Positions 7,687 through 32,330 of a DNA stretch of 64,000 nt are shown here, in pieces. Made by a program: the position numbers and the translations under genes. Origin of the DNA: Escherichia coli. Its GTDB lineage: Bacteria; Pseudomonadota; Gammaproteobacteria; Enterobacterales; Enterobacteriaceae. The first letter of the stretch is position 1. Each line of letters opens with the position of its first letter. The stretch lies in assembly GCF_003018255.1 (NCBI RefSeq), contig NZ_CP027440.1; one strand, 5' to 3'. The notes below the pieces were generated by a model. It searched no databases. It was not told the origin of the DNA and worked only from the letters and a program-made list of their open reading frames with translations.

Positions 7687-7687
7687 G

Positions 7688-10617: not shown

Positions 10618-10848
10618 GTTATAGTTTTATTTGTGAATTAAATCAATTATAGCGATGAATTACAAGGGGTTAAATGATGCCACGGCATAACGAATTTGAA
10701 TATATTGAGTCTTGTGTTGCGGTAAGAGGTTACACGCCAGGACGCAGGTTAAATGCTTACAAGATTAGGGGATATTGTTTGCTTTTAACGGTAAACAAAT
10801 TCCCCGGGGCTATACAATACCACCGGGGAGAAAATCTATTTAACGTTG

Positions 10849-11802: not shown

Positions 11803-12225
11803 AAAAGGTCTCCATTCAATCGTTTTAATGATTGAGTATGTATTTTTTATATCTAACTTAATGAGTCAATTGTATATTGCCCCACTGTTTATATTTTGTT
11901 TAACATTGAATTTTTGTCACAATGCACTGTCAGTTTTTTAGTTTAATTGTCTGTTTGTGTTTTGCATTGTGGTTTTATGGGCTAATTATTTTTTTCTTTG
12001 TGGAGTTTTTATCTATTCAAGTACCATGCCTTTAGATGCATATTAGCGATAATAGCATGAGGTTTATCCTCAATTGCTGTGTTTTTTAGTATAAAAAAGA
12101 GGAACAAAACTGAGACACATAAGGCCTCGCAATGGCTTGCAAGGTTTTACATATTTTGAGGTGGTGGAACGTGTGAACGCAGAGATGGCGCGGTAATTTG
12201 TTGATTTAAAATGTCGTTCCTGGAG

Positions 12226-12270
12226 TTTCTAAGTCGTGGGCTACAGGTTCGAATCCTGCAGGGCGAGCCA
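12226..12270 (+). repeat. argU 3'-end direct repeat (prophage attR core)
   Basis: tctaagtcgtgggctacaggttcgaatcctgcagggcgagcca matches the last ~45 nt of argU with about 3 mismatches. Confidence 0.75.
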
Positions 12271-12460
12271 TTTCCTCGCCATTTATTTGTTCCCTTTTAC
12301 AAATTACACCATCACTTTGTTGTCGCGGTTTTGCTAAATAATTGGAACACGTCAGACGAATAAAATGAAAACAGAAATTCTGCTAAACAATTCATCTTGC
12401 CAGGATTTTGATTAGGAAAGTGAAAAGGAAAGGAGCAAGCTAAGTTGCTCCCTTTAATCA

Positions 12461-13351: not shown

Positions 13352-16324
13352 TTACCAGTGCACTCCAATGGTGAGAAACGCGTTGTTGCGCTCTCCGTTA
13401 CGTTGATTAATCGCCTTAAAGGTATGTTGATATTCGATGCCGAGACTGACTTTGTGCGGCCAGGCGTCGTAGTGCGTCTCGCCGGTCCAGATATTCCAGC
13501 GGACCCCGACACCGCCAAGCTGCGCGCCCTGAGTGCCTTTATCACGATAACCGTTGTCCTGAACGTGAGCATAAGGCTCAATAGTCTGCCCGTTTGCCAC
13601 CTTCTGATGCCAGCTGACTCGATAATCTGCCGTCCACGCCTGAATATCCTGGCGGATATATTGCGCCGCATCGAGGTACAGGTTTTGGGCAAACCAGCCT
13701 GAACCGTTCGGGTGCCATTCGTCGCTGTATTTGCCGCCATTAAAGAATGAGGCGCTGGCGCGCAGCATGGTATCGGATGCGCCATTTTGTCCGTTCAGCG
13801 GCAACTGCTGTTCGACGGCGAGGAAAAAGATCTGATCGCGCAGCGGCTTCCAGCGCAGACCGGTGCCGGACATCGGATTTTTCACCGGCATCATCACCCC
13901 GTTTTCACCGGTATCGGCAAAGACGCGGCTATAAACTGAGAGCAGGTCGCCTTCCAGCAGCATATTGCGTCCGATGCGGTACTCGGCTTCCAGTTGCCCG
14001 TAGCTACGATAGCTTTTCCTTGGCGCTGCGCCGCCGACATTATTGTTAGCGGTACTCATTGCGCCGGAACGCAAGCCAATAGAAGAATCGAAACTGAACG
14101 TCCAGTGGCGACCGACCTCCTCATGCAGACGGCGGAAATTGAAGCGTTGCTGATTTTGCTCTGGGGTCAGTGGGGTTATCAGCGCCTGATTATCAATGTC
14201 ATCAATCACCAGTCGGGCGTAGTGCTGCGTCGCAGGCATGTCATCCAGACGCTGGTTCACGTAGGCCAGTTGTCGGATAAGTGCCGGATCGTCCGGTAGC
14301 CCTTTATGCGCCTGTTCGAGCATTTCCCGCGACTGTGCGATATCACCGCTATCCCACAAGGCGTAACCGAGCGCTGCCTGGGTGTTGCTATTATTCGGTT
14401 CCAGTTCCAGAGCGGCGCGCAAATCACTCACCGCCGCCGGGACATTATGACGTTGGCGATAAATTGTCGCCCGCGCAACGTAAGCGTTGGCAGAAGGCGC
14501 AATATTGATTGAGCGCGTGAGATCGCTCAGTGCGAGTTCCGGCTGACCAGGAATGTAACGTTGCGCATGCAGCCACCAGTAGAGGGCATTGTTTCCCAGC
14601 CCACGTTGTTCTGCCTGCTGAAGCCAGCGATCGCGAGCCGCACCATTTCCTGCCGCCTGGGCGGTATTGGCAGCAGCAAGCAGATCCTCATTGCTCATGC
14701 CGTGAAGACTGATTTTCTGCCAGGCCGCCAGTGCGGTGGCGTAGTCCTCAACCTGATACGCCTGATAGGCTACCGCACGATGTTGCCAGGCGTTCGGTTG
14801 TCGTTGTTCGGCCTGAAGCCATGCATACAACGCCACACCGGGTAGCGTGTCCCGATAACACTTTGCCAGACGGTTCCAGGCGGCAGCATCGTAGGAAGGC
14901 GACATATCGCCCAGCAAGCGAACTATTGCCGGGCAATTATCTGCAATACCCGGCAACTGACTTTGCCACTGACGTTGCTCCGCCAGCGGTAAGGGTTTCG
15001 ATAAAATCGCCACCTTCGCCGGAGTTGCCAGGTAAGGATGACTTTCCAGCAGAGACGCCAGTCGCGCCATTAAAGTCTGGCTGACACGCGCATCGCCCTG
15101 GAAAGGATAGCGTTGCAGCAATAAATCGGCAGCTTCACGTGACTGCTCGTTCTGCATCAGTTGCCAGGTCAGTTGATCCAGGCGGGTAAGATTTGCCGGT
15201 TCTTGCTGATACAGCAATCGTGCCAGACGCAGAGCTTCAGCCTTGTTACGGGTCGCCACGCTAACGGTATAACGCTCCTCAAGCATTTCATTGGCGGGGA
15301 GGGTGGCGAGCAGTTTTTGCGCTGCGTCGTACTGACCTTCTTTTAACAGCACCGGTAGCGTCGCGCCAACAACATACTGGCGGTTGTCGGCAAACTGTAC
15401 CGTATAATTCGCCAACGCCTGAACGGGGTTGCCGCTGTATTTAGATAACAGATAGAGCCAACTTTTCTCTTGTGCGTCCGTGGTAAATAGCGGCGTATTT
15501 TCAATGAGATAATGCTGGAGGCGTGCTTTTTCGCCACGATAAGCCAGCGCGGTCGCGTAAGTAATATATGACTGAGGATCGGTGAAGATCCCCTGTGATT
15601 GCAGCGCCAGGATCCGATCGTCCAGCTGCCCGGCAAGAAGCACATCAAACCACTGACGGCGTTCTGCCGCGCTTAATGTGTTCTGCTGGCGTGCTTCATT
15701 GTATAGCGTATCTGCCTGGGACCATTGTTTCAGGTAGATTGCCCGTTGCAGCAGATCGGTTCGCAGCGTTTTTCCTTCCGGCGATGCAGCAAACGTCGCA
15801 TCGTTCAGTTGCGCTCTGGCGACAGGTAATTGTGCCAGCCGCAGGGCATTCTGCCCGACTTCACTGCGACAACGCAGGGTCGGCGCAGCATCGCACGCTT
15901 TTTGCTGGGCAAGCAGTTCTTCAACAGTCGTAACGCTTTTCACTTCAACTGGAATAGCCGCCAGACTGCGCTCAAGTCGGGCATCTCCTGGGTGACGTTT
16001 CAGTTGATCCTCAAGCAACAGCCGCGCCCGGTCATCATGACCAAAATGGCGATAGGCTTCCGCAAGGTATAAAGTCAGCGGAATATTATCCGGCACCTGT
16101 TGGTGTATATATTCAAATTCGCGGATGGCGGTTGCTTCGTCGTTATTTTTCTGTGCCTTCAGCGCCTTATCGAGACGGGGATAAATAACAAAATGGCGAT
16201 AATCGCTCAGCCCCAGCTCTTCTGCGCTGGTGCCGATATTGTCTGCGAGTGCGCTGGTGCTCAATAAAGACGTCAGCAGTAAACCAGACCATCCGATGAC
16301 GCGATTAAGGTTATTCTCCTTCAT
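13352..16324 (-). CDS. nfrA: bacteriophage N4 adsorption protein A (outer membrane, TPR-rich)
   Basis: ORF 13352..16345; start placed at MKENNLNRVIGWSGLLLTSLLSTSALA (signal peptide), about 990 aa. Confidence 0.9.
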   Translation of the reverse strand: MKENNLNRVIGWSGLLLTSLLSTSALADNIGTSAEELGLSDYRHFVIYPRLDKALKAQKNNDEATAIREFEYIHQQVPDNIPLTLYLAEAYRHFGHDDRARLLLEDQLKRHPGDARLERSLAAIPVEVKSVTTVEELLAQQKACDAAPTLRCRSEVGQNALRLAQLPVARAQLNDATFAASPEGKTLRTDLLQRAIYLKQWSQADTLYNEARQQNTLSAAERRQWFDVLLAGQLDDRILALQSQGIFTDPQSYITYATALAYRGEKARLQHYLIENTPLFTTDAQEKSWLYLLSKYSGNPVQALANYTVQFADNRQYVVGATLPVLLKEGQYDAAQKLLATLPANEMLEERYTVSVATRNKAEALRLARLLYQQEPANLTRLDQLTWQLMQNEQSREAADLLLQRYPFQGDARVSQTLMARLASLLESHPYLATPAKVAILSKPLPLAEQRQWQSQLPGIADNCPAIVRLLGDMSPSYDAAAWNRLAKCYRDTLPGVALYAWLQAEQRQPNAWQHRAVAYQAYQVEDYATALAAWQKISLHGMSNEDLLAAANTAQAAGNGAARDRWLQQAEQRGLGNNALYWWLHAQRYIPGQPELALSDLTRSINIAPSANAYVARATIYRQRHNVPAAVSDLRAALELEPNNSNTQAALGYALWDSGDIAQSREMLEQAHKGLPDDPALIRQLAYVNQRLDDMPATQHYARLVIDDIDNQALITPLTPEQNQQRFNFRRLHEEVGRHWTFSFDSSIGLRSGAMSTANNNVGGAAPRKSYRSYGQLEAEYRIGRNMLLEGDLLSVYSRVFADTGENGVMMPVKNPMSGTGLRWKPLRDQIFFLAVEQQLPLNGQNGASDTMLRASASFFNGGKYSDEWHPNGSGWFAQNLYLDAAQYIRQDIQAWTADYRVSWHQKVANGQTIEPYAHVQDNGYRDKGTQGAQLGGVGVRWNIWTGETHYDAWPHKVSLGIEYQHTFKAINQRNGERNNAFLTIGVHW

Positions 16325-18548
16325 TTTCGGACTCCAGTTGCGCAACCTGTTCTGGGTTTAAACCTGCTTTGAGTAATAGTGATTGCATCGAAACTTGTAA
16401 TTCGCGTTGAATTGTCAGGACGCGATCCAACGTTTCCTGGCTGATAACGCCTTCGGTGACCAAAAACTTGCCGAGCGGCAGAGAACTGCGTTCATGGCGC
16501 AATAACAACACGTTAATTGCTGAACGATTAATATGACCGAGCGTGGTCAGTATTTCGGCGAACAGGAACTGATGCGGCACATATTGCCGCCAGATTTCAC
16601 CGGCCTGCTGTTCCGTGAGCCACTGATGCTGAACCGCATTGTACAACATTGCCCGCGGGTCGTGACCGCGTCGGCGTGCATACCAGTGACGTAACCCCGT
16701 GACAATTTGTCCGCGCAGAACAATGACGTAACGCACTTTGCGTCCGACTTTACGCGTCAGGGCTGCCAGCGAAACCGGGTCAATACCATCTTCACTGCCG
16801 ACAATTAACTCATCATTTTCCAGACGCAGCGGCAGCACTGCATAATGCAGCGCCACGGAAGCCGGCATTTCGGCAATCAGTGATGAAGGGATCTGCCAGG
16901 CGTCGATCGACTCCCACGCCACGCCGTTTTGCTCTGCCAGCGCCTGTGCCAGCTGTTCGGCGCTAATCAGCCCCTGCATCAGCATTGAACCGCCCAGGCG
17001 TAGACCTTCGACGCGATTACGCAGTGCTGTATCGAGTTGTTCTTCAGTGATGACCTGATTTTCCAGCAGGATTTGGCCTAACGGGCGCAACGAGCGGGTA
17101 TCGCCAGTCACGCTGGGGAAGTCATGCGTTGTTTTATCCCACGCGACGCGACGTGGATCGCCGTGTTGAAGTACCTGTTTTAACGCGCGCCAGTTGGCCA
17201 TGAAGTTAATCAGGTTGCCCCAGAAAAGACGCAGGACAGATAGCAGCCCCTGCGTCAGACCGTAGTAGCCAGTGACAAAAATCACCCGCTGCACGATGCG
17301 GTTAACCATCAAACCAAAGTTTAGCCACAGCAGGGTCATTAACCATGCGCTGCCGCTGAAAATAGAAAGGAAATGCCAGGCATCGGGCCACAAACTTTCA
17401 TACGCCAGTAACAGCAAAAGCTGGATCATCACCAGCATCGCGAGGAAGCTGACAAAGTTACTGATTGCCCCTTTGCGGTCGCGCCAGAGAAAGTAGTTCA
17501 GCGTCAGGCTGGAGGTCCATTTGTGGGTTTTAAAGCCCTGGAAAACAATGCCGATGATCCAGCGAGATTTTTGTCGAACCGCAGTCGAAAAGGTATCGGG
17601 GAAATATTCGCGCACGCAGATCATGTTTGACGTCCGCGCGTGCTGTAAAAATTTACGCTGCTCGCGTTCTTTGGCTTCGTCCACCACCGGAAAACGGACA
17701 AAAATTTCCGTCATACCTTTTTCTTTCAGGCGGAAACCAATGTCGTAATCTTCAGTCAGACTCTGCACGTCGAAAGCAATACCGTCACCGTCAGCTAACA
17801 GTGCGGTCACGGCGCGGCGGCTGAAACAGGTGCCGACGCCTGCGCTGGGCACCTGTCCGGCGAGGGCTTCACGCACCGGAACATCTTTGCCATGCAGTTC
17901 TGAAAACTCATCAATGTAGGTCATGCTGGTGAAGTGCGTCCATTCGCGTTCGAACGGATACACTGGGATCTGAATCAGATCTTTACGCTCGACCAGATAG
18001 TTGAACAGACGCAATTCCATCGGTGAAATCACATCTTCGGCGTCATGCAGAATAAAACCAGCAAAAGCGAAATTGGCGCTACGTTCAAATTGGGTGATGG
18101 CGTCCAGCACGTTGTTCAGACAGTCGGCTTTGCTGGTGGGGCCAGGACGCGCGCAGACTACCTTATGCACGTTCGGGAAGCGAGCGCACACTTCGTCAAC
18201 ATCACGCTGAGTATCGGGGTCGTTGGGGTAGGTGCCAACAAAGATATGATAGTTTTCGTAGTCGAGCGTGGTCGCCGCCAGCTCGGCCATATTGCCGATG
18301 ACGCCCGTTTCATTCCACGCCGGAACCATAATCGCTAACGGTTTTTCATCTGGTTTATACAGTTCGCGGTAACTCATTCGCGGGTAGCGGCGATAAACAC
18401 TCAACTTGCGTTTAATGCGGCGTACCCAGTAGACGACATCAATAAAAAAATCGTCCAGCCCGCTGATGAACATGATGACCGCTAACGTTATCGCGATTAC
18501 TTTTAAGCCGTAGAGCCAGGTAGCAAAAACATCAAGAAGCCAGTCCAC
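16311..18548 (-). CDS. nfrB: bacteriophage N4 adsorption protein B (inner-membrane glycosyltransferase-like)
   Basis: 745-aa ORF, N-terminal TM helix, GT2-like region; overlaps nfrA start. Confidence 0.9.
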   Translation of the reverse strand: MDWLLDVFATWLYGLKVIAITLAVIMFISGLDDFFIDVVYWVRRIKRKLSVYRRYPRMSYRELYKPDEKPLAIMVPAWNETGVIGNMAELAATTLDYENYHIFVGTYPNDPDTQRDVDEVCARFPNVHKVVCARPGPTSKADCLNNVLDAITQFERSANFAFAGFILHDAEDVISPMELRLFNYLVERKDLIQIPVYPFEREWTHFTSMTYIDEFSELHGKDVPVREALAGQVPSAGVGTCFSRRAVTALLADGDGIAFDVQSLTEDYDIGFRLKEKGMTEIFVRFPVVDEAKEREQRKFLQHARTSNMICVREYFPDTFSTAVRQKSRWIIGIVFQGFKTHKWTSSLTLNYFLWRDRKGAISNFVSFLAMLVMIQLLLLLAYESLWPDAWHFLSIFSGSAWLMTLLWLNFGLMVNRIVQRVIFVTGYYGLTQGLLSVLRLFWGNLINFMANWRALKQVLQHGDPRRVAWDKTTHDFPSVTGDTRSLRPLGQILLENQVITEEQLDTALRNRVEGLRLGGSMLMQGLISAEQLAQALAEQNGVAWESIDAWQIPSSLIAEMPASVALHYAVLPLRLENDELIVGSEDGIDPVSLAALTRKVGRKVRYVIVLRGQIVTGLRHWYARRRGHDPRAMLYNAVQHQWLTEQQAGEIWRQYVPHQFLFAEILTTLGHINRSAINVLLLRHERSSLPLGKFLVTEGVISQETLDRVLTIQRELQVSMQSLLLKAGLNPEQVAQLESENEGE

Positions 18549-18699
18549 ACAAAAACCTTACATTAACGCTGGTTATGTTTAGGGTGGCGTATATTAAGGT
18601 TTTTTATGAATTGTGACAGCTTTTTACCATTAATAGGTATGACTATTGCGGCACGTTATTTTTACACTGGTTATAAAAGTTGCCGTTTGCGTAGAATGT

Positions 18700-19900
18700 A
18701 GACAAAAGCGTGGTGTCAAGGAGGGGAGGTTAACGCAGGGAAAGATTACGAAAGCCCGCTCCCAGCAAGGACTGACGCGAGATAGTTTCTGTCCATGGCT
18801 GCTTTTCGCAACTTACGTCTTAACCCTGCCTTGAATACCTTATCATTCGTCAAAATATTAATAGCGATGTGCCGTAGCCCTGAAAATAATTCTGCTGCAT
18901 TTCCTCTTCTTATTTTGCAGTCGTCTTCATTCATTACCACGTCCAGACGCCAGTGCAGCTTATTCTCCACGTGCCAGTGGTTTCGGATTGCTGTGGCGAA
19001 CTTCTCTGCGGTTAAATCAGCAGAACTGATATAATATCTGACCGTCATTTCTGGCTCTTTCTTTTGTTCTGCTATTATTGACCGAAAGGAGACTGCCACG
19101 CATAATTTCTTCAGTCCTTTCCATTCAAACGTGAAATCAATAAGTTCATCAGGGACATCGCAAACAATGTGAAGCCGGATTTCTTCTCTGCCGTGACTCT
19201 TTTCACTAATTGCGTAACTGTCATGCTCTGGATTATTTAATTCTTTCAGTGGGAATTTTTCCTCAAAGGCTTTATTAAGCCGCCCCTGATTTCCTTTTAC
19301 AGCGAATAAATAATCACCGCCCTGTTTTTGTATCTTCTCTGCAATATCTTTCTGGCAACCCATCGCATCAGTTGTGATGATTTTTCCTTTAATATCCAGC
19401 ATGTTAAGAAGTTCTGGGATAGCTGTAATCTCATTAGATTTCTCATCCGTCCTGATCTGTCCGATGACCAGACTGTGCATTGTTGAGAACGCACTAATGA
19501 CATGAATCGCTCCCCTGCGGCGACTCCTGTCATAAGAATGCCGGAGTGTTTTTCCATCGATTGCAATAACGTCTTTATCATCTGAAGTATGGCAATCTCG
19601 CATCCAGTTAATAAAGCACTCGTGAAATTTTGAAGGACTGATACAGGATACAACTCTGGCGATGGTATCGTGAACAGGAATACCATTTTCAAAATCACCA
19701 TATTGTTTTAAAAAATCGAGATGTGTTTCCCCAAAATCCTCTATATCTTCCCAGCCTTCTGCACCAGAAATAACGGCACAAATAGTCAACAGTAGAATAT
19801 CCGACAATTTATGTTCCACTTTCCAGGCTTGTCTGTAATCGGGGATAATAGAAATATGTTCCATCAATTTTTTAAGTTCCATTTTGTTCTCCTTAATTAT
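18700..19900. mobile_element. ISAs1-family (H-repeat) insertion element at the distal end of the Rhs island; boundaries approximate
   Basis: Contains an H-repeat-type transposase ORF; this family is classically found at the end of E. coli Rhs elements. Confidence 0.6.
18746..19882 (-). CDS. ISAs1-family transposase (H-repeat-associated protein)
   Basis: 378-aa [54 protein letters not shown]... typical of H-rpt/YhhI-type transposases. Confidence 0.85.
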
Positions 19901-19908
19901 GTAAGGAG

Positions 19909-20146
19909 TATTTGATCATGTATACGCAATAAAAAACAGCTTCAGGTAATGAGGAATATCTCGATTTTTAAACATAAAATGCGAATTACTTAGTACAAAA
20001 AATGTACTTCTGATGATCTTTCCCTGGTATTTGATCATGTATAAGCAATAAAAAACAGCTTCAGGTAATGAGGAATATCTCAATTTTTAAACATAAAATG
20101 CGAATTGTTTAGTACAAAAAAGCAGCGTTACGTGATCTTTCCCTGG
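19909..20146. repeat. tandem duplication, 2 x 119 bp, next to the H-repeat transposase start
   Basis: tatttgatcatgtatacgcaataaaaaacagcttcaggtaatgaggaatatctc... repeated at 19909 and 20028; copies diverge in their last third. Confidence 0.85.
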
Positions 20147-20230
20147 TGCAGGAACTGAGGAAGGAACTTTATCAGGTTAAACAGGTGGTGAAGGGAATGA
20201 AGAACGGGATATCCGGCGTATTACGCGAGG

Positions 20231-20266
20231 TATAAAAATAAAAGCCGGGAGATTGTCACTCCCGGC
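20231..20266 (-). terminator. candidate intrinsic terminator after the orphan immunity gene
   Basis: Hairpin gccgggag...ctcccggc followed on the minus strand by a T-rich run (ttttatttttat). Confidence 0.5.
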
Positions 20267-20272
20267 AACATA

Positions 20273-20554
20273 TTATTTTTTTATTTCATTATATCTGATA
20301 AAAAAAGTATTTAGCGCATCATGTTCATCTTGTGAGAACAATAAAATAATTTTATCCCATGAATGTCCTGTTACTCCATAATAGTCTTCAATATAAGATT
20401 GAAGCCTTATTAATATCTCAATATTGACGATTTCTTTTGGCTCTCTCATTTGCCATCCATCCAGGAAAGCTTTTAACGCCGATATGGTATGCCTGCTTAA
20501 ATATAAAGCTGGTCTTTTTTCTATCATATCAATCAGTTTAACAATATCATTCAT
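20273..20554 (-). CDS. putative immunity protein for the orphan Rhs toxin tip (RhsI-like)
   Basis: 93-aa AT-rich ORF starting 2 nt after the toxin-tip stop; position is the only evidence. Confidence 0.5.
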   Translation of the reverse strand: MNDIVKLIDMIEKRPALYLSRHTISALKAFLDGWQMREPKEIVNIEILIRLQSYIEDYYGVTGHSWDKIILLFSQDEHDALNTFFIRYNEIKK

Positions 20555-20556
20555 AA

Positions 20557-21180
20557 TTAAAACCTTGATGGAGTAATGGTGTATTCGCCAGGAGAGTATA
20601 TATCATTCAGCCAATCTTCATACTTTATACCAGAAGGATTCATATTATCAAAAACTGTATCACCTACTTTTATTGCTTCATGATGACCATTAGTTGCTAT
20701 ATTTTTACCTATTCTATCACTCCATATATTGCCAAAGGCACCTTGTTTATTTTTAGTTTCGAGTATGAGATGCTCACCATTTACCCCAGCTTGTTGCATT
20801 TTACTTTTTAACGCTGCGGCAAATTTATCGCATTGAAAAAGCTGTTTAAACTTATCACTTATTGTTGTTGCAAGATCCCTTGTTTTTGCGATATCGCAAA
20901 TGGTTAATCCTAATGGATCAATATAACCAAGGGGATTATGAACATATGCATAATTGTTTATCCCGCCTCTCAGCCCTATCGGGTCACTCACCAGGTACAT
21001 CCCTGTTTCCGGCTCGTAATACCGGAACCGGTTATAGCACAGCCCGGATTCCGTATCCTGCCACTGTCCTGCATACAGCAGGCCGGGGTCGGGGTCGGCT
21101 TCCGGGTCCAGCTCCCCGCGCGGGTCCGGGTAGCCGGTGTCTGCGGGCAGACTGAGTGCCAGCCCCCACAGGCTGGTTTG
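20557..21180 (-). CDS. orphan Rhs C-terminal toxin cassette (conserved PxxxxDPxGL junction plus about 115-aa variable toxin domain of unknown activity)
   Basis: In frame with orphan core fragment after an in-frame TGA; contains YYEPETGMYLVSDPIGLRGG...NPLGYIDPLGL then an AT-rich divergent tail. Confidence 0.65.
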   Translation of the reverse strand, partial: QTSLWGLALSLPADTGYPDPRGELDPEADPDPGLLYAGQWQDTESGLCYNRFRYYEPETGMYLVSDPIGLRGGINNYAYVHNPLGYIDPLGLTICDIAKTRDLATTISDKFKQLFQCDKFAAALKSKMQQAGVNGEHLILETKNKQGAFGNIWSDRIGKNIATNGHHEAIKVGDTVFDNMNPSGIKYEDWLNDIYSPGEYTITPSRF

Positions 21181-22476
21181 TCACGGTCGCCACACGGTTT
21201 TACCTTCACTGTTAAAGAGCATCAGCGGACGGCCCGTCAGGTCGCTCACCGCATGATTCGTCCGCGTCACCCACTGCGGGGCCACCGACGGATGCGGCTG
21301 CCGTACCCGGCTGCACTGCTGGCTTATCAGCTCAAAGCCGTTAAACACCAGGTGCCGTACGCTGTACAGTTTATCATCGCGGTATTCCCGGATTTCCGCA
21401 ATATTGTCGCCGTCCCACAGGTACGTAAAACGGATTTTCTTCCGGTCGCAGCGTTTTTCCGTCCGCCTGCCGCTGGCGTCGTAGCGGTATTCCCACTGCT
21501 CACCCTGTGCGCTGCAATACCCGGTCAGCTGGTCACGGCTGTCCCACCGGAACCGCTCTGTTTCCGGGCGGTAGCCGTCACGGTGTCTGGTGCGGCTGAC
21601 CATCCGGCCTGCGGCGTCATAGTCATACTGCGTGTTTCCGGCCTGTTTCAGCCGGTGGCCTCCGGCATACTGGTCAGTCTCTTCACTTATCCGGTGCCTG
21701 CCCGCAGACTGCGCCTTCAGGTAGCCACAACTGTCATAGCCATAGGACTCATCGCCTTCGCCATAGCCCAGCCCGGTGCCTGAGGCTGTCACCGCCGTGA
21801 CCTGACCGTTCCGGTCCAGCCGGTATTCCCGCCGTGTTTCCCGTCCGTAATCTTCCCGGCTGGTGACAGCCGACACATTGCCCGCGCTGTCGTAACGGTA
21901 CTCCCGTACCAGTGAGGGGAGCAGCCCGCCCCATGTGGTTTCCTCCGGGAAAAATCCGGCGCGCTGGGTGACAAGCTGGCTGGCTGCATTCCAGCCCTGC
22001 TCACAGGCAAAACCCCGGTTACTGTGCCGGAGCACTTCACGTCCTGCCTCATCACGGCTGAACGTCAGCGTCTCATCCCCCGGCAGGATAACCTCCGTCA
22101 GTTCTCCGGCGGCGTTGTAGCGGTAGGTGGTTTTCAGCAGGGATTCACCGGGATGTCTGTCGCGTTCATCTTCCGGTGGCAGGATACAGCGGATGACGGT
22201 GTGTTCATCGGGGTAGTGGTATTCAATGGCCCGTCGGCCCTGAGTGGTGACATTCACCCGCCCGCGTTCGTCATAGCCGGTGCGCTGTGATGTGCCGTCC
22301 GGGCTGAAGATACCCGTCAGCCTGCCGGATTTGTCATACGCATACTGCGTTTTGCCTTCCGGCGTGATGACTTCTGCCAGGCGGCCTGCGGCGTCCCGGC
22401 TGTAGAGGATGGTTTCCTCCAGACCGTTAACCCTGGCGGTACACAGGCCATCGGCGTCATAGCGGTAACGCCAGGC
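21181..22476 (-). pseudogene. orphan rhs core 3' fragment (no start or N-terminus), near-identical duplicate of the 3' core of the main rhs gene
   Basis: About 1.3 kb near-identical at DNA level to 23589-24884; YD-repeat translation; homology to main copy ends at about 22476. Confidence 0.8.
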
Positions 22477-22503
22477 TACTCCGTTGTACCCAGCTCATAG
22501 AAT

Positions 22504-22926
22504 TTATCTAGCAATTTGTATTAAGGGGGTTTCACCCACATGTTTTAATAAACTCATTAACCAGATGGCCTCTTCTCTCGTTCCGGAGTATATTACCTTC
22601 GATTCATTTCTAATAATTCGAAGTGCTTCTTTTGTATCAATCGAAAAAGCCTTACGAATGACTTTTATAGTTTCCATCTGTGATTTTATATTTTCAAGTC
22701 TAACATTCCATAAACCCTCAAAATCAATCAATTGTAGACGAATTTTTTCTGGGGGAAAGCCTATATCATCTGATTCACTACGTAATCCGCAATTATGGCA
22801 TATAATTGATTCATACCATGCGAGTATACCATTGTGACTCGTCTGCCCTATAGCTATAGAACATATTTTTCCACAGCAAGGACACTCAATAGTCGTTTTA
22901 AATTCATCACCAAACACTATAACCAC
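22504..22926 (-). CDS. putative immunity protein for the main Rhs toxin (RhsI-like), Cys-rich zinc-ribbon-like N-terminus
   Basis: 140-aa ORF overlapping the toxin stop; CPCCGKIC ... CHNCG cysteine pairs. Confidence 0.55.
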   Translation of the reverse strand: MVIVFGDEFKTTIECPCCGKICSIAIGQTSHNGILAWYESIICHNCGLRSESDDIGFPPEKIRLQLIDFEGLWNVRLENIKSQMETIKVIRKAFSIDTKEALRIIRNESKVIYSGTREEAIWLMSLLKHVGETPLIQIAR

Positions 22927-23588
22927 CCTCTCATCCGCTTATATCTTCGAATCGTCTCGTAAAATTTCTGTTCCATCTCAGTACCTTTGGGATGATGATC
23001 ATTCAATCCTCGCTTCCACCACCTATGATGTAATTCTTCATGAATAATAACATCTCTTAATGCTGCACGAGACGAAAAACTATTTTTACCAAACTGAGTT
23101 CCTTCCCAAAGTTTAGCAATCCCTGTTCGCATAAACGGATTGTATTGAGGGATATATGTTAGTTTAAGATATGCAAAATCTTCTTTAAGTATGGCTGTAA
23201 TTGCCTTATTTCTGGCTCTGGCCGTAGAACCTGTAACATGACCGAGATCAGAAACATAAGTCTGTGGCCCTCTAGAAAACTCGACTGTTTTATTAATTAT
23301 ACTAGTTATAGCTAATCCCAGCGGATCAACATACCCACACGGATTAGGCACATACCGGTAAGTCTGCTCACCCCCCAGCAACCCCAGCGGATCACTCACC
23401 AGGTACATCCCTGTTTCCGGCTCGTAATACCGGAACCGGTTATAGCACAACCCGGATTCCGCATCCCGCCACTGTCCTGCATACAGCAGGCCGGGGTCGG
23501 GGTCGGCTTCCGGGTCCAGCTCCCCGCGCGGGTCCGGGTAGCCGGTGTCTGCGGGCAGACTGAGTGCCAGCCCCCACAGGCTGGTTTG
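22917..23588 (-). CDS. C-terminal extension of main Rhs protein: PxxxxDPxGL junction plus about 130-aa toxin domain with HExxH motif
   Basis: Same frame as Rhs core, separated by TGA at 23589-23591; translation ...[20 protein letters not shown]...VDPLGL then ...[13 protein letters not shown]... Confidence 0.65.
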   Translation of the reverse strand, partial: [223 protein letters not shown]

Positions 23589-26500
23589 TCACGGTCGCCA
23601 CACGGTTTTACCTTCACTGTTAAAGAGCATCAGCGGACGGCCCGTCAGGTCGCTCACCGCATGATTCGTCCGCGTCACCCACTGCGGGGCCACCGACGGA
23701 TGCGGCTGCCGTACCCGGCTGCACTGCTGGCTTATCAGCTCAAAGCCGTTAAACACCAGGTGCCGTACGCTGTACAGTTTATCATCGCGGTATTCCCGGA
23801 TTTCCGCAATATTGTCGCCGTCCCACAGGTACGTAAAACGGATTTTCTTCCGGTCGCAGCGTTTTTCCGTCCGCCTGCCGCTGGCGTCGTAGCGGTATTC
23901 CCACTGCTCACCCTGTGCGCTGCAATACCCGGTCAGCTGGTCACGGCTGTCCCACCGGAACCGCTCTGTTTCCGGGCGGTAGCCGTCACGGTGTCTGGTG
24001 CGGCTGACCATCCGGCCTGCGGCGTCATAGTCATACTGCGTGTTTCCGGCCTGTTTCAGCCGGTGGCCTCCGGCATACCGCTCAGTCTCTTCACTTATCC
24101 GGTGCCTGCCCGCAGACTGCGCCTTCAGGTAGCCGCAGCTGTCATAGCCATAAGTCTCATCGCCTTCGCCATAGCCCAGCCCGGTGCCTGAGGCTGTCAC
24201 CGCCGTGACCTGGCCGTTCCGGTCCAGCCGGTACTCCCGGCGTGTTTCCCGTCCGTAATCTTCCCGGCTGGTGACACCTGACACGTTACCCGCGCTGTCG
24301 TAACGGTACTCCCGTACCAGTGACGGAACCAGCCCGCCCCATGTGGCTTCTTCCGGAAAAAATCCGGCGCGCTGGCTGACAGGCTGGCCGGCTGCATTCC
24401 AGCCCTGCTCACAGGCAAAACCCCGGTTACTGTGCCGGAGCACTTCACGTCCTGCCTCATCACGGCTGAACGTCAGCGTCTCATCCCCCGGCAGGATAAC
24501 CTCCGTCAGTTCTCCGGCGGCGTTGTAGCGGTAGGTGGTTTTCAGCAGGGATTCATCGGGGTGTCTGTCGCGTTCATCTTCCGGTGGCAGGATACAGCGG
24601 ATGACGGTGTGTTCATCGGGGTAATGGTACTCAATGGCCCGTCGGCCCTGAGTGGTGACATTCACCCGCCCGCGTTCGTCATAGCCGGTGCGCTGTGATG
24701 TGCCGTCCGGGCTGAAGATACCCGTCAGCCTGCCGGATTTGTCATACGCATACTGCGTTTTGCCTTCCGGCGTGATGATTTCTGCCAGGCGGCCTGCGGC
24801 GTCCCGGCTGTAGAGGATGGTTTCCTCCAGGCCGTTAACCCTGGCGGTACACAGGCCATCGGCGTCATAGCGGTAACGCCAGGTCACGCCGCCCCAGTCA
24901 TGCTCTTCCGTCACCCGCCCACAGTTGTCGAGAAGATAACGGTATGACTCACCCTGCGGGTTGATGACTTCTGTCAGTTGCAGCGTGTCTTTATCATAGC
25001 GGTACTGCCAGCGGTGGCCTTCACCGTCCGTTCGCGCCACCGGCAAATCAAACGGGCCGTATTCCATTGTCCAGACAACGCCGTTACCGTCCGTGTACGC
25101 CAGCAGGTTGCCGTGGCGGTCATAGCGGAATCCTTCTGCGCCGGTTCCTGCCCGCTCAAGGCCGCTCAGTTTATGGTGCTGCTGCCACTGCAACCGCACT
25201 GACTGACCGCCGGGGCCGCGCATCTTCACCGGCAGGTCGTGACCACTGTATTCGGTGTGGTGTTCACGGCCCATCACGTCGGTGAGTGTTTCCGGCCGGT
25301 TGTGGTGGTCGTACTCTATGCCCAGACGCCGTTCATCCTGGCGGAATATCCCCGACAGCAGCCCCTGAGCGGTGTACGCCAGCCGGGTCTCTTCGCCCTG
25401 TGGCGATACCAGACTCACCGGCAGGCCGCGTTCATCGCACTGCTGTGTCCACGTCTGCCCGGCAGGGTCGGTGATGTTGCTGAGCAGGCCGCGCTCATCA
25501 TAGCGGTACAACCACACCGCGCCGTCTGCCGCCGTATAACGGCTTAACTGACCGTGTACGGCGTTGTATTCAAATTTCTCCACCCGTCCGGCAGGGGAGT
25601 GGCGGGCCAGCAGGTGATGGAATTCATCCCATTCATACGTGGTGGTGCTGCCGTCCGGCGCTTCTTCCCGCAGAATATTGCCGTCAGGATCATAGTAATA
25701 ACGGTGAATGCCCTTGCCGTCCGTCACGGTGGTGCAGCCGTCACTATAGTCCAGCGTGGCGTTGTAATAGCCGTCCGCCCCGGTGACATTCACGCACCGG
25801 CCCTGTTCATCGTAGGTGAAACGGCTCCACGTCTGGTCGTTATCGGACCAGCGGATGATCCGGTCCGCAGCGTCGTACTCATAAAACAGGTGGTAGTCCA
25901 GCCGCGCATCCGCTTCGGTCAGCCGCCCCCGCGCATCCTGTTCGTAGGTCGCCAGCGTCTGTATGCCGTTATCCGTGCGGTGAATGGCTTTCAGGTAGCC
26001 GCTGGCGTGGTACGTCAGTTTAAGCCGGATCCCGTCGGTGTGACTGACACCCGTGATGCGGTACTGGCTGTCGCGCTCAAACGTGATGCGGTTGCTGGCG
26101 GTGTCGCTCATCCCGCCCAGCATGTACATCCGGTCACCGGGGCTGTGTGCCAGGCGGTCATCATTGGTATCGTCAGTCACCGGGTGGCGCAGGCGCATTC
26201 CCGGAAAGGCGTCATAAAAGAAGCGGCTGCTCAGGGCATCACGGTCGAACAGCTCCAGGTAATCGTCGCGGCGGCGCAGGATATACTGGGCGTGATACGG
26301 GTTAACCGCCGTATCACTGTCTCCGTCGAAGGCAAAGTACAGCGTGGCTCCCTGGCTGATGATATCCACCCGGTTTCCCTGTTCACGCACCCAGGCGTAT
26401 TCGCTCCAGGAGTCGCTCCAGCCCACGCCCGTCAGGCCATGCAGTGGCAGTACAGAACTGTGGAAACGGGTGAAGGAGAGGGGGAGTGTCTGGCCCAGCG

Positions 26501-27728
26501 TAAAGTCGGTACGTTCGTCGCAGTATGCGCCGGTTACCGGATCGACAGGATCTGTTACCCATCTGATGACTTTATTGGCAATACTTTTTAACGACTTACC
26601 TGTTTTCCCCAGCAACGCGCCGAGCTTTGCCCCCAGCAGCTTCCCGCTTTTCCCCAGCAGGTTTCCCAGTTTGCCGAGTTTCGCCAGATTCCCCAGTTTT
26701 CCCAGCAGTCCCGCGGGCGGCAGAAGATAGCTGGCTATCGTTATTCCCCCCAGGATCATTCTCTGCCACGGCGGGAACTCCGGCTGGATATCCAGATAGG
26801 TCACCTGTTCACCGCCAATAAAGACGTCCGGCGAACCTTCCACGATTGCCGCGCTGCACTCCAGTTTGTCGCCCTTGCGCGCGGCAGGCTGATTGTTGAT
26901 AAAGACGTTGCTGCTGCCCTGGGCTATCCTCGGTGGTTTGTTCTCCTTGTCGCAGAGCGCCGTGTCCTCACCGGCTTCCGGGAAATCCACGTCTTTTTTG
27001 ATTTCGCCACGCCCGCCCACCATGGTGGCAAACTCCATTAATACCGGACCGGCGGGAAACAGAAGCGATGCGCCGGCGCTGACGCGATCCATAATACCGG
27101 CATTGCTGTCCGTCAGGGTGATAACAGCGTTCCCCCAGGCCTTCGCCAGTGGCACTGCTTTTTCCGCTGCCGATTCAAGCAGGTCAGTGGCAATATCCCC
27201 CCATGAAGGTTCCCCCTGTGGTGGAGAGGGTATTGCTTCAGTCAGGGGAGGAGGGGGAAGGGTGACGGCGGCCCTGGCTGCTGGCTTACCGTTAATTTTT
27301 ACGTTTTCAGAACCGGTATTGATGGCGCCGTCCGTGTCACAAAAACTGTTTATCCATGACTCAAGCTGGTTCTGTTTCTCCTCCACATAATCACTCGCCT
27401 TATAGCTGGCATACATCAGCGCAGGCACCAGAACCAGCGCATAAGGGCCGGTGGCGCAGGCGGCCATAATCAGGCAACCTTCTGCGATAGTTACTATCGC
27501 CCCCAGCACGGCCCCTGCCAGTGCCCCCAGAAAACTTTTATGCTGAATTTCATCGCCCAGCCTGGCGGCAGGTGGGCCGGACTTCTTTGCTGCCAGCATC
27601 TGTGCAATGGCTTTGTCGTTGGCTGCCCGTTTCATCTGGCTGGCGACCATCGCCTGCTGTGACAGCATTCGCATTGCCAGCGTACCGCCTGCGGTCGCTC
27701 CCTGTGGGCCGCCTGGTCCTTCACTCAT
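23589..27728 (-). CDS. prePAAR/PAAR-domain Rhs repeat protein (T6SS effector core with YD-repeat shell)
   Basis: 1379-aa ORF; prePAAR motif [10 protein letters not shown] near N-terminus, PAAR motif ([14 protein letters not shown]), many YD repeats (YRYD, YEYD, YDxxGR); ORF ends at in-frame TGA before the DPxGL region. Confidence 0.9.
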   Translation of the reverse strand: [1379 protein letters not shown]

Positions 27729-27747
27729 GTGTTATCCCTCGTTTATG

Positions 27748-28209
27748 TCAGCGCGGCTGGTCCTTTTGGATGTCATTCTCCGGTGGCAACGGGGTGAAGC
27801 TCTTTATCACCTCCAGCAGCATCGTCTTTTGACTGTTCTTCAGGGATAAGGAGGTGCTGAAAGTGAAGGTCAGCAGCGTATCTCCACGCCGCTGGAATAC
27901 GGCTATCTGGTCAATCCGTCCCTGGTTCCCCTCATCTTCCGGACCGTTCCAGGAATAATCCAGCAGCCAGGCCGGGGCCTCTGCCAGAGTGATTTCCCGG
28001 CAGGCATGTTCGGTGTACCCATCAAGTTTGCCCTGGTACAGCGCCAGCGTTTCCTGGTACAGCTCTGGTGTCAGGGTTCCCTGTGGAACGGCTTCGCGGG
28101 TAATGACCAGGTTGATGCCACTGTTATCTGTGGACACCAGGACCTGCATTGACTGATCCTGCCATTGCGATGGCAGCTGAATATGACCTTCATTAAAAGT
28201 GAACTGCAT
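27748..28209 (-). CDS. DUF1795/Eag-family effector chaperone (inferred)
   Basis: 153-aa ORF between vgrG and the prePAAR-Rhs gene; size and position typical of Eag chaperones for prePAAR effectors. Confidence 0.65.
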   Translation of the reverse strand: MQFTFNEGHIQLPSQWQDQSMQVLVSTDNSGINLVITREAVPQGTLTPELYQETLALYQGKLDGYTEHACREITLAEAPAWLLDYSWNGPEDEGNQGRIDQIAVFQRRGDTLLTFTFSTSLSLKNSQKTMLLEVIKSFTPLPPENDIQKDQPR

Positions 28210-28236
28210 AAAATACTCCCTGATAATCTGAATGAA

Positions 28237-30138
28237 TCAGTTGATGAAAACAGAACCGCCCACGATGGTGATGCCATCCTTCGACAGCCTGATTACCGTC
28301 GATTCCCCGACCTGTAGCTGAATGCCATCCGGCGTCAGCGCAATTTTGCTTTCCTCCACGGCCAGCATAATTTGCTTAATTGCCGTATAAGCCTGTATAC
28401 CGTCGCCTTCGCCACCATTGTTTACAGCGTCAACATGCACTGAACCGGCAATCGTGCCTCTGTCCTGAAAAACATCCTCAGATAAAGACCCTTTTAGTAC
28501 GCCTGTGATTTTGTGGCCTTTTTCCACCGTAAGAAGGCGGTTACCTTCCTGGATCATGACCGTCTGGTCATTTTTTACGGTTTCGCGGTGATCGTGTTTT
28601 ACGGTGGTGGTACGGTCGTTGAGTACCTCGGTATCCATGTTCTTCTGGGCGTGGATGTAGACCTGTTCTTTCCCTGTCGCATCGTCAAACTTCAGCTCGT
28701 TAAACCCGCTGCCCATATATGTTTTGGAGCGGATGGTCATCTGCGTCTTCGTTCCCGGCAGGCTGCCCGGCGAGCGGTTATCTTCGTGGTAGGTGCGCCC
28801 CATAATGATCGGCTGGTCCGGATCGCCGTTGAGGAAGTCCACAATCACCTCCTGACCCACGCGCGGTATCGCCAGGTTGCCAAATCCCGGCCCCGCCCAC
28901 GCCTGCGCCACCCGTATCCAGCACGAACTGTCCTGATTGGCCGGGTTATAGCGGTCCCAGTTGAATTTCACCCGCACCCGGCCATGCTCGTCGCAGAAGA
29001 TTTCCTCTCCCGCAGGCCCCGTCACGACGGCGCTCTGCGGACCGTCCACTGACGGCTTTGGCTTCGGCTGAGGTCGCCACGTCCGGTCTGCCGGTATTAC
29101 CGCAAAGTGGTTATTCAGCGTGGTACCTGACCCCCTGCGTCCCGGCACCGCCTGCGGCTGTTCGCCGTGCAGTTCGCTCGCCACCACCTGCCATTCCCGG
29201 TTCAGGTTCGCCTGCGGATGCTCCGTCAGCACAATTCGCCGTCCAGGCCATATCTCCGGCGAGCGGCTCATTCCCCGCGCGGTTTCGGCGTTGTTTCGCC
29301 AGCCGTCCATCTGCCAGCGGGCAAAGTTCTGCCCGTGGGCGCTCTTGAAACGCCCGGGCCAGTCATACACTTCATACTGTGTGCGCTGGTAATCCTGATG
29401 CTGGCCTTCCTGGTCAAAACGTCCGGCCCAGCCGGGGCGTTTAAAGGTGTAGTCTTTGGTCACCACAGAGGAAGGACGGATTTGTGCGCTGTAGCGGAAC
29501 TGGCTGATGCAGAGGGTGCTCACCTCGGTACGGGTGTTCGGGTTCCAGGGGATTTCAAAGGATTCCGGCAGATAGCGGACCGTGTCGCACAGCACCAGAC
29601 TCTGGTCGGTACTTTTCTGCGCGTGCTCCTCATAGAAGAAGATGCCTTCCTCCGCTGCTATCCGGCAGAGAAAGTCGTAATCGGTTTCACCGTACTGGAC
29701 ACAAAACTCACGGGAAGGATGCGGCTCACTGAACAGCGGGCTCCACTCCGTGACGTCATTTTCCTGCAGTATGGTGCCGAGGATGCTTCTGATGTCCTCG
29801 TTCTGGAATATACGGAAGTTCTGACGCAGTCCTGCCCGCCACAGCGGCGGGCGCACCTTCATGCTGTACAGCATCTGGTTTTTGTCGTTCTCCCCGAGTT
29901 CAAACCAGGTCACCACGCCTTTCACCCGGCGCTGTACGTCATCGCCCTGCCATACCGTCAGGTAGGCCATTTTGTCCAGCACCTGCGCAAATTCAAGGGA
30001 GAGAAACTGCTGACTGACCAGAGAAAGGTCAAGGGAAAAAAGTGAAGAGAGTGACTGGGTGAGATGAAAGGAGACCACCGCAAAAGCGTCCGGTGGCAGG
30101 CCGTCCACTTCCAGTGTGAAACGTAATCCGGTTGACAT
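28237..30138 (-). CDS. vgrG: type VI secretion spike protein VgrG
   Basis: 633-aa ORF starting MSTGLRFTLEVDGLPPDAFAVVSF... with gp27/gp5-like regions and C-terminal beta-helix repeats. Confidence 0.9.
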   Translation of the reverse strand: MSTGLRFTLEVDGLPPDAFAVVSFHLTQSLSSLFSLDLSLVSQQFLSLEFAQVLDKMAYLTVWQGDDVQRRVKGVVTWFELGENDKNQMLYSMKVRPPLWRAGLRQNFRIFQNEDIRSILGTILQENDVTEWSPLFSEPHPSREFCVQYGETDYDFLCRIAAEEGIFFYEEHAQKSTDQSLVLCDTVRYLPESFEIPWNPNTRTEVSTLCISQFRYSAQIRPSSVVTKDYTFKRPGWAGRFDQEGQHQDYQRTQYEVYDWPGRFKSAHGQNFARWQMDGWRNNAETARGMSRSPEIWPGRRIVLTEHPQANLNREWQVVASELHGEQPQAVPGRRGSGTTLNNHFAVIPADRTWRPQPKPKPSVDGPQSAVVTGPAGEEIFCDEHGRVRVKFNWDRYNPANQDSSCWIRVAQAWAGPGFGNLAIPRVGQEVIVDFLNGDPDQPIIMGRTYHEDNRSPGSLPGTKTQMTIRSKTYMGSGFNELKFDDATGKEQVYIHAQKNMDTEVLNDRTTTVKHDHRETVKNDQTVMIQEGNRLLTVEKGHKITGVLKGSLSEDVFQDRGTIAGSVHVDAVNNGGEGDGIQAYTAIKQIMLAVEESKIALTPDGIQLQVGESTVIRLSKDGITIVGGSVFIN

Positions 30139-30881
30139 AGCAACCTCCGTGAAAATGAATAATAATCCGCATATATTGCATGTACAACATGTCGGGTAAT
30201 GAGATAAGCGGGCCGGCTTCAGGCGTTACCGGGGAATATCAGAAAAGTGTCATGGTTATGTGATGATTTTGTCCGGGATTTTACTTCAGAGAAACGGGGG
30301 GCTGTTGACTCAACAAAATAATCACAAACTCAACTGACGGGTTCACGATGTTATTAAGGACAGGCTCGTATATTACATCGAGTAACAAAAAAACACCTGA
30401 TATGCAAAGTCAAACCAATATTTGTAATGTCTTTTTATTCACAATAATAAATAACTCAATAAACATTATTGAAATGAATGATGGTTTGTATAAGGAATAT
30501 ACGCTACCGCCCCACCCTGATAACATGATCTGCACATTGCTATCTTAACGTCGTTAGACGCTGGCTTAATAGTGAATATTTTAAATTAGGAATTTATCAA
30601 GTTCACTTGATAAATAGACCGCGTGAATAATATAGAGATTAATGATGCCTGACTGCGCTTTATATTATAGCCGATTCTTTTATAGTGATGAAAATTTAGT
30701 AATAGCATTGTGCTCTACAATTGGTAGAAACACGAATTTAATTAAATTGCATATCTAAATATCTCGTAAATATCCGAAAATGAATAACCTTCGATTTCAG
30801 ACGACCAATAAGGTCTTCCCTGTTTTATTGATAAATAATAACAGAAGGCGATACATCACTCTTTGAGTTTGAACTAACTAA

Positions 30882-32330
30882 TTAACCTTTCTCCGGTAGT
30901 TTGATCATAAACCTTGTCCCCCGAGCATCTGACGTTACTGCAACCGTGCCTTTATGCGCGACAACAATCGATTTCACTATCGCCAGGCCAATACCGCTAC
31001 CTTCGCCTTTTCGCTGACGGGAGGGGTCAACGCGATAGAAACGGTCAAACAATCGCGGTAAGTGCTCGGGCGCAATGGGCGTACCGGGGTTTTCGACGGT
31101 AACTTGCACCAGGTGATCGACCGTCTGGCAGCGCACGACAATTGTCTCTCCGGTTGGCGTATAACGCAGGGCATTAGAAAGCAGGTTGCTTAACGCCCGA
31201 CGCAGCATCAGCGGATCGCCCGCAACCTGACACTCGTCGCCAACAAACCGCAGCTCCACGCCGCGATCTTCTGCTAACGCCTCGAAAAAATCGAACACTT
31301 TGCCGACTTCATCCGCCAGGTTGAGCATTTTCTTTTCGGGGATTAGCTGGTTGTTATCGGCCTGAGCGAGAAACAGCATATCGCTGACCATTTTCGCCAT
31401 TCGCGTCAGCTCTTCGAGATTAGAGTAGTGCACATCTTCCAGCTCCTTCTGGCTGCGCGACTGGCTGAGGGCGATTTCCGTTTGCGTAATGAGATTAGTA
31501 ATAGGTGTGCGAATTTCGTGGGCGATATCCGCTGAGAAATTGGACTGGCGGGTAAAGACATCCTCAATACGCTCGATCATATGGTTGAACGACAGTACCA
31601 GCTGTTCCAGCTCAATGGGCACGGTCTGCGGGTCAAGGCGAACGTCGAGATCTTTCGAGGTAATGTTCTGGATTTGACGGCTGACGCTGCGGATCGGCGC
31701 GTGACCTTTATGTACCGCCAACAGCACGATAAAGACGATCAGGATGCTGATTACCGATGCGGTCATAATAAGTTTATTCATCAAATCATTTATGTAATGA
31801 AGATGAAAATCGATCGAAAGCGCAATGTAGAGCGTATAAATCGGTTTGCCGTCCACCAGTGGGCCAACCGGCAAGCTAATCATCCGCCAGTTGCTGTGTT
31901 CCATATGCCCGTGACCGTGGCCCGGCATCATCATCGTCGGGCCGGAAAGGAGATACACCTCGCCGCCCTGCGCGTCTTTATCGGGTATGGCGTCACGCGT
32001 AAACTCGCGGATATCCGGCGCTCCGGGGGAGTGATACACCGTTTTACCGTGGCTATTTGCCAGGGAGATCAACACATTGGAATAACCACTGACGATATCT
32101 TCCAGCGTCATTAAGCGTCGGGCTTGCGTTTCGTCAGGGTGATTAAGTACCCGTTCAAGGGTGGCGCTAATCTCCTTTAAATCATTAATATCCTGCTCGG
32201 CAAAATGCACTTTTACCGAGTGGATCATGATCCATGCAAAGGCGAAAAACGCCGCGATGGTGGCGAGGCTGATAAAAAAGGTCAGGCGGGTTGCCAGCGA
32301 AAACGGGCGCTGAAATGGCTTACTGACCAT
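30882..32330 (-). CDS. cusS: copper/silver-sensing histidine kinase
   Basis: 482-aa ORF with two TM segments, periplasmic domain, HisKA (H-box [10 protein letters not shown]) and ATPase domains. Confidence 0.93.

Follow-up and report, generated by a model that had tools for sequence, protein, structure and literature searches.

A vgrG–eag–rhs island between nfrB and cusS of Escherichia coli with a probably disarmed effector gene and intact putative immunity genes

The stretch of 64,000 nucleotides analysed here (the window; contig NZ_CP027440.1 of Escherichia coli) carries, between nfrB and cusS, an accessory island that encodes the spike protein VgrG of a type VI secretion system (T6SS), an Eag chaperone, an Rhs effector and, further downstream, toxin tips and putative immunity genes. 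It is not new: E. coli is known to have a vgrG-eag-PAAR/Rhs effector island at Rhs "position 4", which is highly polymorphic, and the block in the window is a copy of it. Its main rhs gene is interrupted in frame by a TGA codon that separates the Rhs shell from the plug and toxin encoded downstream. The best explanation of the data, to which we give a probability of about 75%, is that this copy of the position 4 island holds an effector disarmed by the TGA, that immunity was kept, and that the stop codon was spread between the rhs copies by recombination.

A preliminary description, made from the DNA letters alone, had listed vgrG, a chaperone gene of DUF1795 size, an Rhs protein with prePAAR and PAAR motifs, a toxin tip with its immunity gene, an orphan rhs tip and immunity cassette, and an H-repeat (ISAs1) transposase, together forming an accessory module that K-12 lacks. 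Every one of these elements was recovered where it had been placed, on the minus strand, and the block is indeed missing from K-12 MG1655. The description erred on one central point, in that it took the 1379-residue Rhs protein as complete and the toxin tip as a separate unit; plug and toxin follow in the same frame, downstream of the in-frame TGA.

Results and discussion

The rhs frame is cut at the boundary between shell and plug

Translation of the main rhs gene yields an open reading frame of 1379 amino acids (23589–27728 including the stop), beyond which the same frame reads on for 223 codons (WRP*QTSLWG...DPLGL-x17-DPLGL) through an MPTase5 toxin to a TAG at 22917–22919, 1603 codons overall. 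Two frameshifts were considered as an alternative, as out-of-frame reading frames of 73 amino acids span the junction, and were ruled out by the translation, which shows a single in-frame TGA. The part behind the TGA matches the Rhs-associated core family (TIGR03696 Rhs_assc_core, 3e-19) and, over the full length of the model, the Pfam family Tox-MPTase5 (PF15641, 2.5e-29); the HExxH motif of this predicted protease is present as HEELHH. A PDB sequence search with the toxin tip gave a match confined to the conserved plug part.

The N-terminal part has the architecture of a class I prePAAR effector, a class defined by an AARxxDxxxH motif, a single transmembrane domain (TMD) region before PAAR and an adjacent Eag protein (Ahmad et al. 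2020, PMC7773334). The motif AARLGDEIQH occupies residues 54–63 (Pfam prePAAR_I, 5e-5) and is followed by a single TMD region ahead of PAAR, a hydrophobic stretch of 45 residues (63–107), by a PAAR domain split between residues 131–152 and 266–310 (Pfam PAAR_motif, 3e-10), and by DUF6531 (1e-12) and a shell of YD repeats detected in nine stretches (TIGR01643). Simple hydropathy, on which the TMD region was placed, also marks a second, shorter hydrophobic stretch at 324–343 in the post-PAAR region. The RhsA/EagR1 pair of Pseudomonas protegens and the Rhs1/SciW pair of Salmonella Typhimurium (PMC7773334) likewise combine AARxxDxxxH, one TMD before PAAR and YD repeats with a neighbouring DUF1795 gene; in contrast to both, the toxin-bearing C-terminus in the window lies off the translated polypeptide.

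The closest structural counterpart places the stop codon precisely. The best PDB match of the 1379-residue protein is Rhs1 (Tre23) of Photorhabdus laumondii (7pq5, E = 4.7e-232), with residues 253–1378 of the query aligned to residues 138–1260 of the chain. The P. laumondii Rhs1–EagR–VgrG system (7PQ5; Jurenas et al. 2021, PMC8636562) has the same succession of prePAAR, TMD, PAAR, post-PAAR, shell and a plug with two DPLGL motifs, and its genes are in the same order, vgrG-eagR-rhs, whereas the toxin is an ADP-ribosyltransferase there and a predicted zincin (Tox-MPTase5) here. In Rhs1, the barrel spans residues 420–1262 and the C-terminal aspartyl-protease plug residues 1263–1357, with D1338 of the second DPLGL freeing the toxin (PMC8636562). 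Because the truncated protein aligns up to residue 1260 and the plug begins at 1263, the stop falls exactly at the boundary between shell and plug; unlike in P. laumondii, the frame breaks off ahead of the plug, at what would be residue ~1261 of Rhs1.

As encoded, then, the predicted product of 1379 residues comprises prePAAR, PAAR and shell and lacks plug, autoprotease and toxin. JNE112863 and JNE23-011, the nearest complete genomes (99.6% and 99.5% identity over 13.5 kb), have GGA (glycine) in place of the TGA and an intact main rhs coding sequence of 1601 amino acids, so that the DPxGL-x17/18-DPxGL autoprotease and the toxin are on one polypeptide with the shell there and not in the window. 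Since the TGA severs plug, autoprotease and toxin, and the only start codon that the severed part has of its own is an internal TTG, the effector in the window is most likely disarmed.

Behind each toxin tip stands a small intact gene whose immunity role is putative and assigned solely by position. The protein of 137 amino acids encoded behind the MPTase5 tip has a counterpart in the relatives (WP_073568922.1) and is rich in cysteine, with CPCCGK and CHNCG motifs that may form a zinc ribbon. The protein of 93 amino acids behind the second tip occurs in identical form on 493 contigs. Searches of Pfam and NCBIfam assigned neither protein to a family. The second tip belongs to an orphan rhs fragment, a 1.5-kb core 97.7% identical to 23379–24883 in a self-BLAST, followed by a papain-fold toxin (Pfam Tox-PL-2, PF15643, 1.7e-22). 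The orphan has the identical in-frame TGA, at 21181–21183, and PGAP annotates it in near-identical relatives as a pseudogene with an internal stop.

The stop allele is rare and has moved between rhs copies

When the rhs copies of the window and JNE112863 were aligned, the main gene of the window proved to be of orphan type, and unlike the JNE main gene, at 12 consecutive variant sites between 23559 and 23700, the TGA among them; variants specific to the main gene border this tract at both ends. Relative to DETEC-S792, discussed next, the main gene also has a short patch at 23450–23497 that resembles orphan 1 of that genome and comprises three single-nucleotide polymorphisms (SNPs) and a 6-bp insertion encoding "DP", by which EADPG has become EADPDPG in both copies of the window.

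The genome of DETEC-S792 (NZ_CP116067.1) agrees with the window in its vgrG, eag and immunity alleles, has three orphans, and reads TGA in the main rhs as well as in all three orphans (4/4 copies, WRP*QTSLWG); PGAP calls its main rhs a pseudogene. A sequence error or mutation peculiar to the window is thus ruled out, as the TGA stands in the main gene of DETEC-S792 too. The TGA as a common or conserved feature of orphans is equally ruled out, since GGA was found in all seven main and orphan copies read from four other genomes and, of 5426 complete genomes, only 3 contain the exact 68-mer spanning the TGA. The GGA or TGA state was read from translations; a degenerate DNA pattern fitted only the orphan haplotype, owing to the linked SNPs. 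In the extracted DETEC-S792 locus, the island lies at 2495–15751, and its orphan tips are HNH-like, of no assigned family, and PL-2.

A more technical explanation of the main-copy TGA is an artefact of assembly or polishing, in which reads of the 97.7%-identical orphan were mapped onto the main gene. The two copies do have a 1.5-kb repeat in common and the TGA tract is identical to the orphan type at the 12 linked sites, as such mapping would produce; yet the TGA recurs in the main copy of DETEC-S792, an independent complete assembly, the tract is framed on both sides by main-specific variants, and the exact 1379-residue product is on record at NCBI from a 4.89-Mb contig. We regard an artefact as scarcely credible.

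Apart from one deletion, which runs from the tip of orphan 1 to the core of orphan 3, the array of the window is collinear with that of DETEC-S792. The crossover lies at ~20980–21060, in the hyperconserved stretch that codes for DPxGL, and has left an orphan with the core of orphan 1 and the PL-2 tip. The aligned sequences suggest that the TGA belongs to a rare nonsense haplotype, specific to one lineage, which gene conversion or unequal recombination has moved among the tandem core repeats, and that the array of the window arose by deletion from a DETEC-like array with three orphans.

Downstream of its main rhs, Salmonella Typhimurium reportedly has an orphan core, tip and immunity gene, and recombination is said to activate the orphan toxin. 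Rearrangement by recombination between core repeats has likewise shaped the array here, as the crossover relative to DETEC-S792 indicates. Unlike in Salmonella, however, recombination alone cannot restore an active effector, since every copy has the same stop.

Spike, chaperone and secretion machinery

The spike and chaperone genes ahead of rhs are well supported. VgrG scores 627 bits against TIGR03361 (cut-off 186) and has the three parts of a spike protein, a gp27-like hub (Phage_GPD, 7e-75), a gp5 OB fold (Phage_base_V, 9e-15) and a C-terminal beta-helix (Gp5_trimer_C, 2e-21). The eag gene starts 27 nucleotides downstream of vgrG and lies 19 nucleotides upstream of rhs, and its product has the DUF1795/DcrB fold (Pfam DcrB PF08786, 3e-27; match in the PDB to EagT6, 6xrf, 1.6e-5). 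As expected of an Eag chaperone, the gene adjoins that of a prePAAR effector with a TMD, to which the protein is predicted to bind. An identical VgrG is found on 680 contigs and an identical Eag on at least 1000, the latter under the public names "DUF1795 domain-containing" and "DcrB-related".

Of 16 T6SS-1 proteins used as tblastn queries against the 64-kb window, VgrG gave the sole match; no homologue of TssA, B, C, E, F, G, H, J, K, L or M, Hcp, TagH or VasI was found there, just as the preliminary description had reported an absence of core genes. That description had left the choice between an orphaned set and a T6SS encoded elsewhere. The genomes of relatives lend support to the second option: JNE112863 and DETEC-S792 have a T6SS-1 cluster at aspV, with 13 core genes (tssA, B, C, E, F, G, H, J, K, L, M, hcp and vgrG) annotated as intact. 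The VgrG of the JNE112863 cluster is 92% identical to the VgrG of the island over residues 1–538, and the C-terminal ~95 amino acids are unrelated, a pattern that would be expected for alternative spikes of one machine with different cargo.

These data bear on the view that the whole island is an orphaned relic, i.e., that the genome has no functional T6SS, that spike, chaperone and effector are decaying, and that only the immunity genes matter. The lack of any T6SS core gene from the window fits it, as does the nonsense codon in the main rhs, and in DETEC-S792 the rhs gene linked to the T6SS-1 cluster is a pseudogene. Against it stand the intact vgrG and eag genes, with alleles that are widespread among contigs, and the full set of 13 core genes annotated as intact in both relatives; a relic of this kind therefore seems quite improbable.

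Could the interrupted effector still be made?

Several points weigh against disarmament by a stop codon that recombination has spread. The context CCG-UGA-C is reportedly among the poorest for termination in E. coli, and some full-length Rhs could be made by read-through. No second defect was found in the frame of 1603 codons, so the gene was either inactivated recently or is still under some selection. As far as the four genomes tell, the transfer could have run from orphan to main gene, or the JNE main copy could have been repaired. Finally, a VasL-domain gene beside tssM is annotated as frameshifted both in JNE112863 (24175–25585) and in DETEC-S792 (15586–16996; both in locus coordinates), an observation that also speaks for the relic just discussed. 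Proteins of the VasL/TagA type are accessory and not core components of the T6SS.

The first two of these points can be developed into a reading in which the module still works as a weapon: the UGA would be leaky, tryptophan would be inserted by near-cognate decoding, and enough full-length Rhs would be delivered by a T6SS-1 encoded elsewhere. Besides the proline codon before the UGA, the C after it and the isolation of the defect, this reading can draw on the persistence of the allele in the main gene of DETEC-S792, on the retained immunity gene and on the T6SS-1 clusters of the relatives. Against it, an Rfam search of the TGA region returned no match at E ≤ 1, and the fold of the RNA behind the UGA is no more stable than those of its shuffles (z = −0.12). 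The structured RNA expected downstream of a programmed UGA was thus not found, and a recoding signal was rejected on these two results. Ordinary read-through would yield only a small minority of full-length product, with which the truncated PAAR-shell protein would compete for the tip of VgrG. The allele is, moreover, restricted to 3 of the 5426 genomes, with glycine (GGA) the rule elsewhere, and the main rhs of DETEC-S792 has been annotated as a pseudogene. Taken as a whole, an active weapon is unlikely.

A bolder version holds that the Pro-UGA-C is a leaky stop kept on purpose and homogenised into every copy (2/2 in the window, 4/4 in DETEC-S792). If it were true, the leaky stop would throttle the production of toxin-loaded Rhs, or would supply "blank" PAAR-shell tips, which would lack the toxin and still sharpen the spike, so that an orphan tip brought into the main gene by recombination would stay at a low, safe dose. 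We consider this very improbable. With no Rfam match, an ordinary fold and an allele confined to one small lineage, we rate an effector that was disarmed with its immunity kept well above one that is leaky but functional.

The island occupies Rhs position 4

The flanks of the island are nfrB (16311–18548, minus strand, 5' end at 18548) and cusS (30882–32330, minus strand, stop codon at 30882–30884). In K-12 MG1655, cusS directly follows nfrB with a gap of 149 bp and the block of ~12.2 kb is absent; in an alignment of the nfrB–cusS segment of K-12 with the window, homology is lost at 18690 and returns at ~30885, beside the cusS stop. The GC content ranges from 35 to 63% inside the block and is ~52% in the flanks; such a pattern, in which the core is rich in GC and the tips in AT, is classic for Rhs. 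All island genes are on the minus strand, in the order vgrG, eag, rhs with its tip, immunity gene, orphan with its immunity gene, and ISAs1 transposase, and the gene order of the window agrees with the ylbF...entF segment of a relative.

Jackson et al. (2009, BMC Genomics, PMC2935791) listed this site, on the reverse strand and flanked by nfrB and cusS, as Rhs position 4 in their Table 3. Position 4 is the sole clade IV rhs locus in E. coli, has dissociated tips, and was used to illustrate the displacement of C-terminal tips (PMC2935791, Fig. 5). The block in the window sits at the same place and strand, with a GC-rich rhs followed by an AT-rich region that contains fragments of core plus tip, and its tips, too, are of the kind exchanged between strains; it differs from the published locus not in kind but in its particular content, with MPTase5 as the main tip, PL-2 as the orphan tip and the main gene interrupted by a nonsense codon. 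From the common site and the 90–99% identity to other cores found there, the core in the window probably belongs to rhs clade IV. Among 5426 complete E. coli genomes, at least 757 match 80% or more of the 13.5-kb query in one place at nfrB/cusS, and the tips there differ in other strains (AHH, a restriction-endonuclease fold and other zincins). Every part of the island already has a name from the NCBI pipeline.

The Rhs elements of K-12, in findings of the Hill laboratory, are said to consist of a GC-rich core, an AT-rich extension and a distal H-rpt/ISAs1 transposase, and the island in the window is built in the same way. The K-12 elements differ from it in lying at other sites, with nfrB/cusS empty, and in belonging to clade I (PMC2935791).

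Other features of the island and its surroundings

The coordinates of all features are collected in Table 1. Upstream of vgrG, the presumed promoter region contains three sigma-70-like sites on the minus strand, a number not above chance expectation.

Table 1 Features of the nfrB/cusS island, with positions in the window
Feature	Coordinates	Strand	Evidence
Accessory island between nfrB and cusS	18691..30885	.	K-12 intergenic alignment, GC content
ISAs1-family (H-repeat/ISEc1-like) element	18736..20147	-	NF033564, inverted repeats
Putative PL-2 immunity gene, 93 amino acids; starts 2 nucleotides after the orphan tip	20273..20554	-	
Orphan rhs fragment, core and Tox-PL-2 tip	20557..22475	-	Self-BLAST, translation, Pfam
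Putative MPTase5 immunity gene, 137 amino acids; GTG start shares 1 nucleotide with the rhs TAG	22504..22917	-	
Rhs-associated core (C-terminal plug, two DPLGL) and Tox-MPTase5 zincin (HEELHH)	22917..23588	-	Same frame as rhs
In-frame TGA (CCG-TGA-C) at the shell/plug boundary	23589..23591	-	Translation
rhs, N-terminal 1379 codons: prePAAR, TMD, split PAAR, DUF6531 plug, YD-repeat shell	23592..27728	-	
eag, chaperone of the DUF1795/DcrB family, 153 amino acids, intact	27748..28209	-	Pfam, PDB match
vgrG, T6SS spike, 633 amino acids, intact; starts MSTGLRFTLEVDGLPPDAF	28237..30138	-	TIGR03361, Pfam
Presumed promoter region of the vgrG-eag-rhs operon	30139..30881	-	AT-rich, ~39% GC

The distal end of the island is formed by the ISAs1 element, whose transposase (18746–19882) is intact at 378 amino acids and scores 417 bits against NF033564. 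The terminal inverted repeat (18736–18760 and 20121–20145) has arms of 25 nucleotides that are 80% complementary, and one end has been duplicated in tandem over 119 bp (19908–20147, 91–96% identical), which has doubled the repeat arm (20014–20028 and 20133–20147). The transposase gene is also intact in DETEC-S792 and has an internal stop in JNE112863 and JNE23-011, with the differences clustered at 19115–19340. On the plus strand at ~20128–20235, PGAP annotates in near-identical relatives a partial "SymE family type I toxin" pseudogene; the corresponding stretch of the window matched no Pfam or NCBIfam family significantly, and no Rfam RNA was found near it.

Beside the island, 17 SNPs relative to JNE112863 are concentrated within ~390 bp of cusS (31111–31497), next to a stretch free of SNPs, and may mark the edge of a recombination tract. 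CusS itself has 482 amino acids here and 480 in K-12, with a different C-terminal end. Farther away, a tRNA-Arg(TCT) gene (8825–8901) is followed, according to the annotation of a relative for 8900–11800, by remnants of an integrase and of tail-fibre assembly genes and then by a methyltransferase gene and ompT; the region is a decayed prophage where K-12 has DLP12.

Proposed working and implications

By analogy with homologues, for which each of the steps has been shown, the complete module would work as follows. The Eag chaperone would shield the N-terminal transmembrane helices of the prePAAR Rhs, and the prePAAR and PAAR parts would together cap the tip of the cognate VgrG trimer (cf. PMC7773334). 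The YD-repeat shell would enclose the C-terminal toxin, which the aspartyl autoprotease of the plug would free at the DPLGL motif; the T6SS-1 machine encoded at aspV would fire the loaded spike into neighbouring bacteria, and the small gene downstream would protect siblings. In the copy of the window, vgrG, eag and the two putative immunity genes are intact and the effector would be disarmed, so that the main role of the locus would be that of an immunity island and tip reservoir.

As a textbook T6SS auxiliary module with Rhs tip displacement, the island matters little beyond its correct annotation. A stop that is leaky by design would be a new way to dose a polymorphic toxin, but the data presented here do not point there. 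Annotation does matter, since the 1379-residue open reading frame, if taken at face value, leads to a live effector being counted where the gene is interrupted. Beyond that, the island offers a clean, small example of how recombination between main and orphan rhs copies may carry a loss-of-function allele from one copy to another and delete orphan tips as well.

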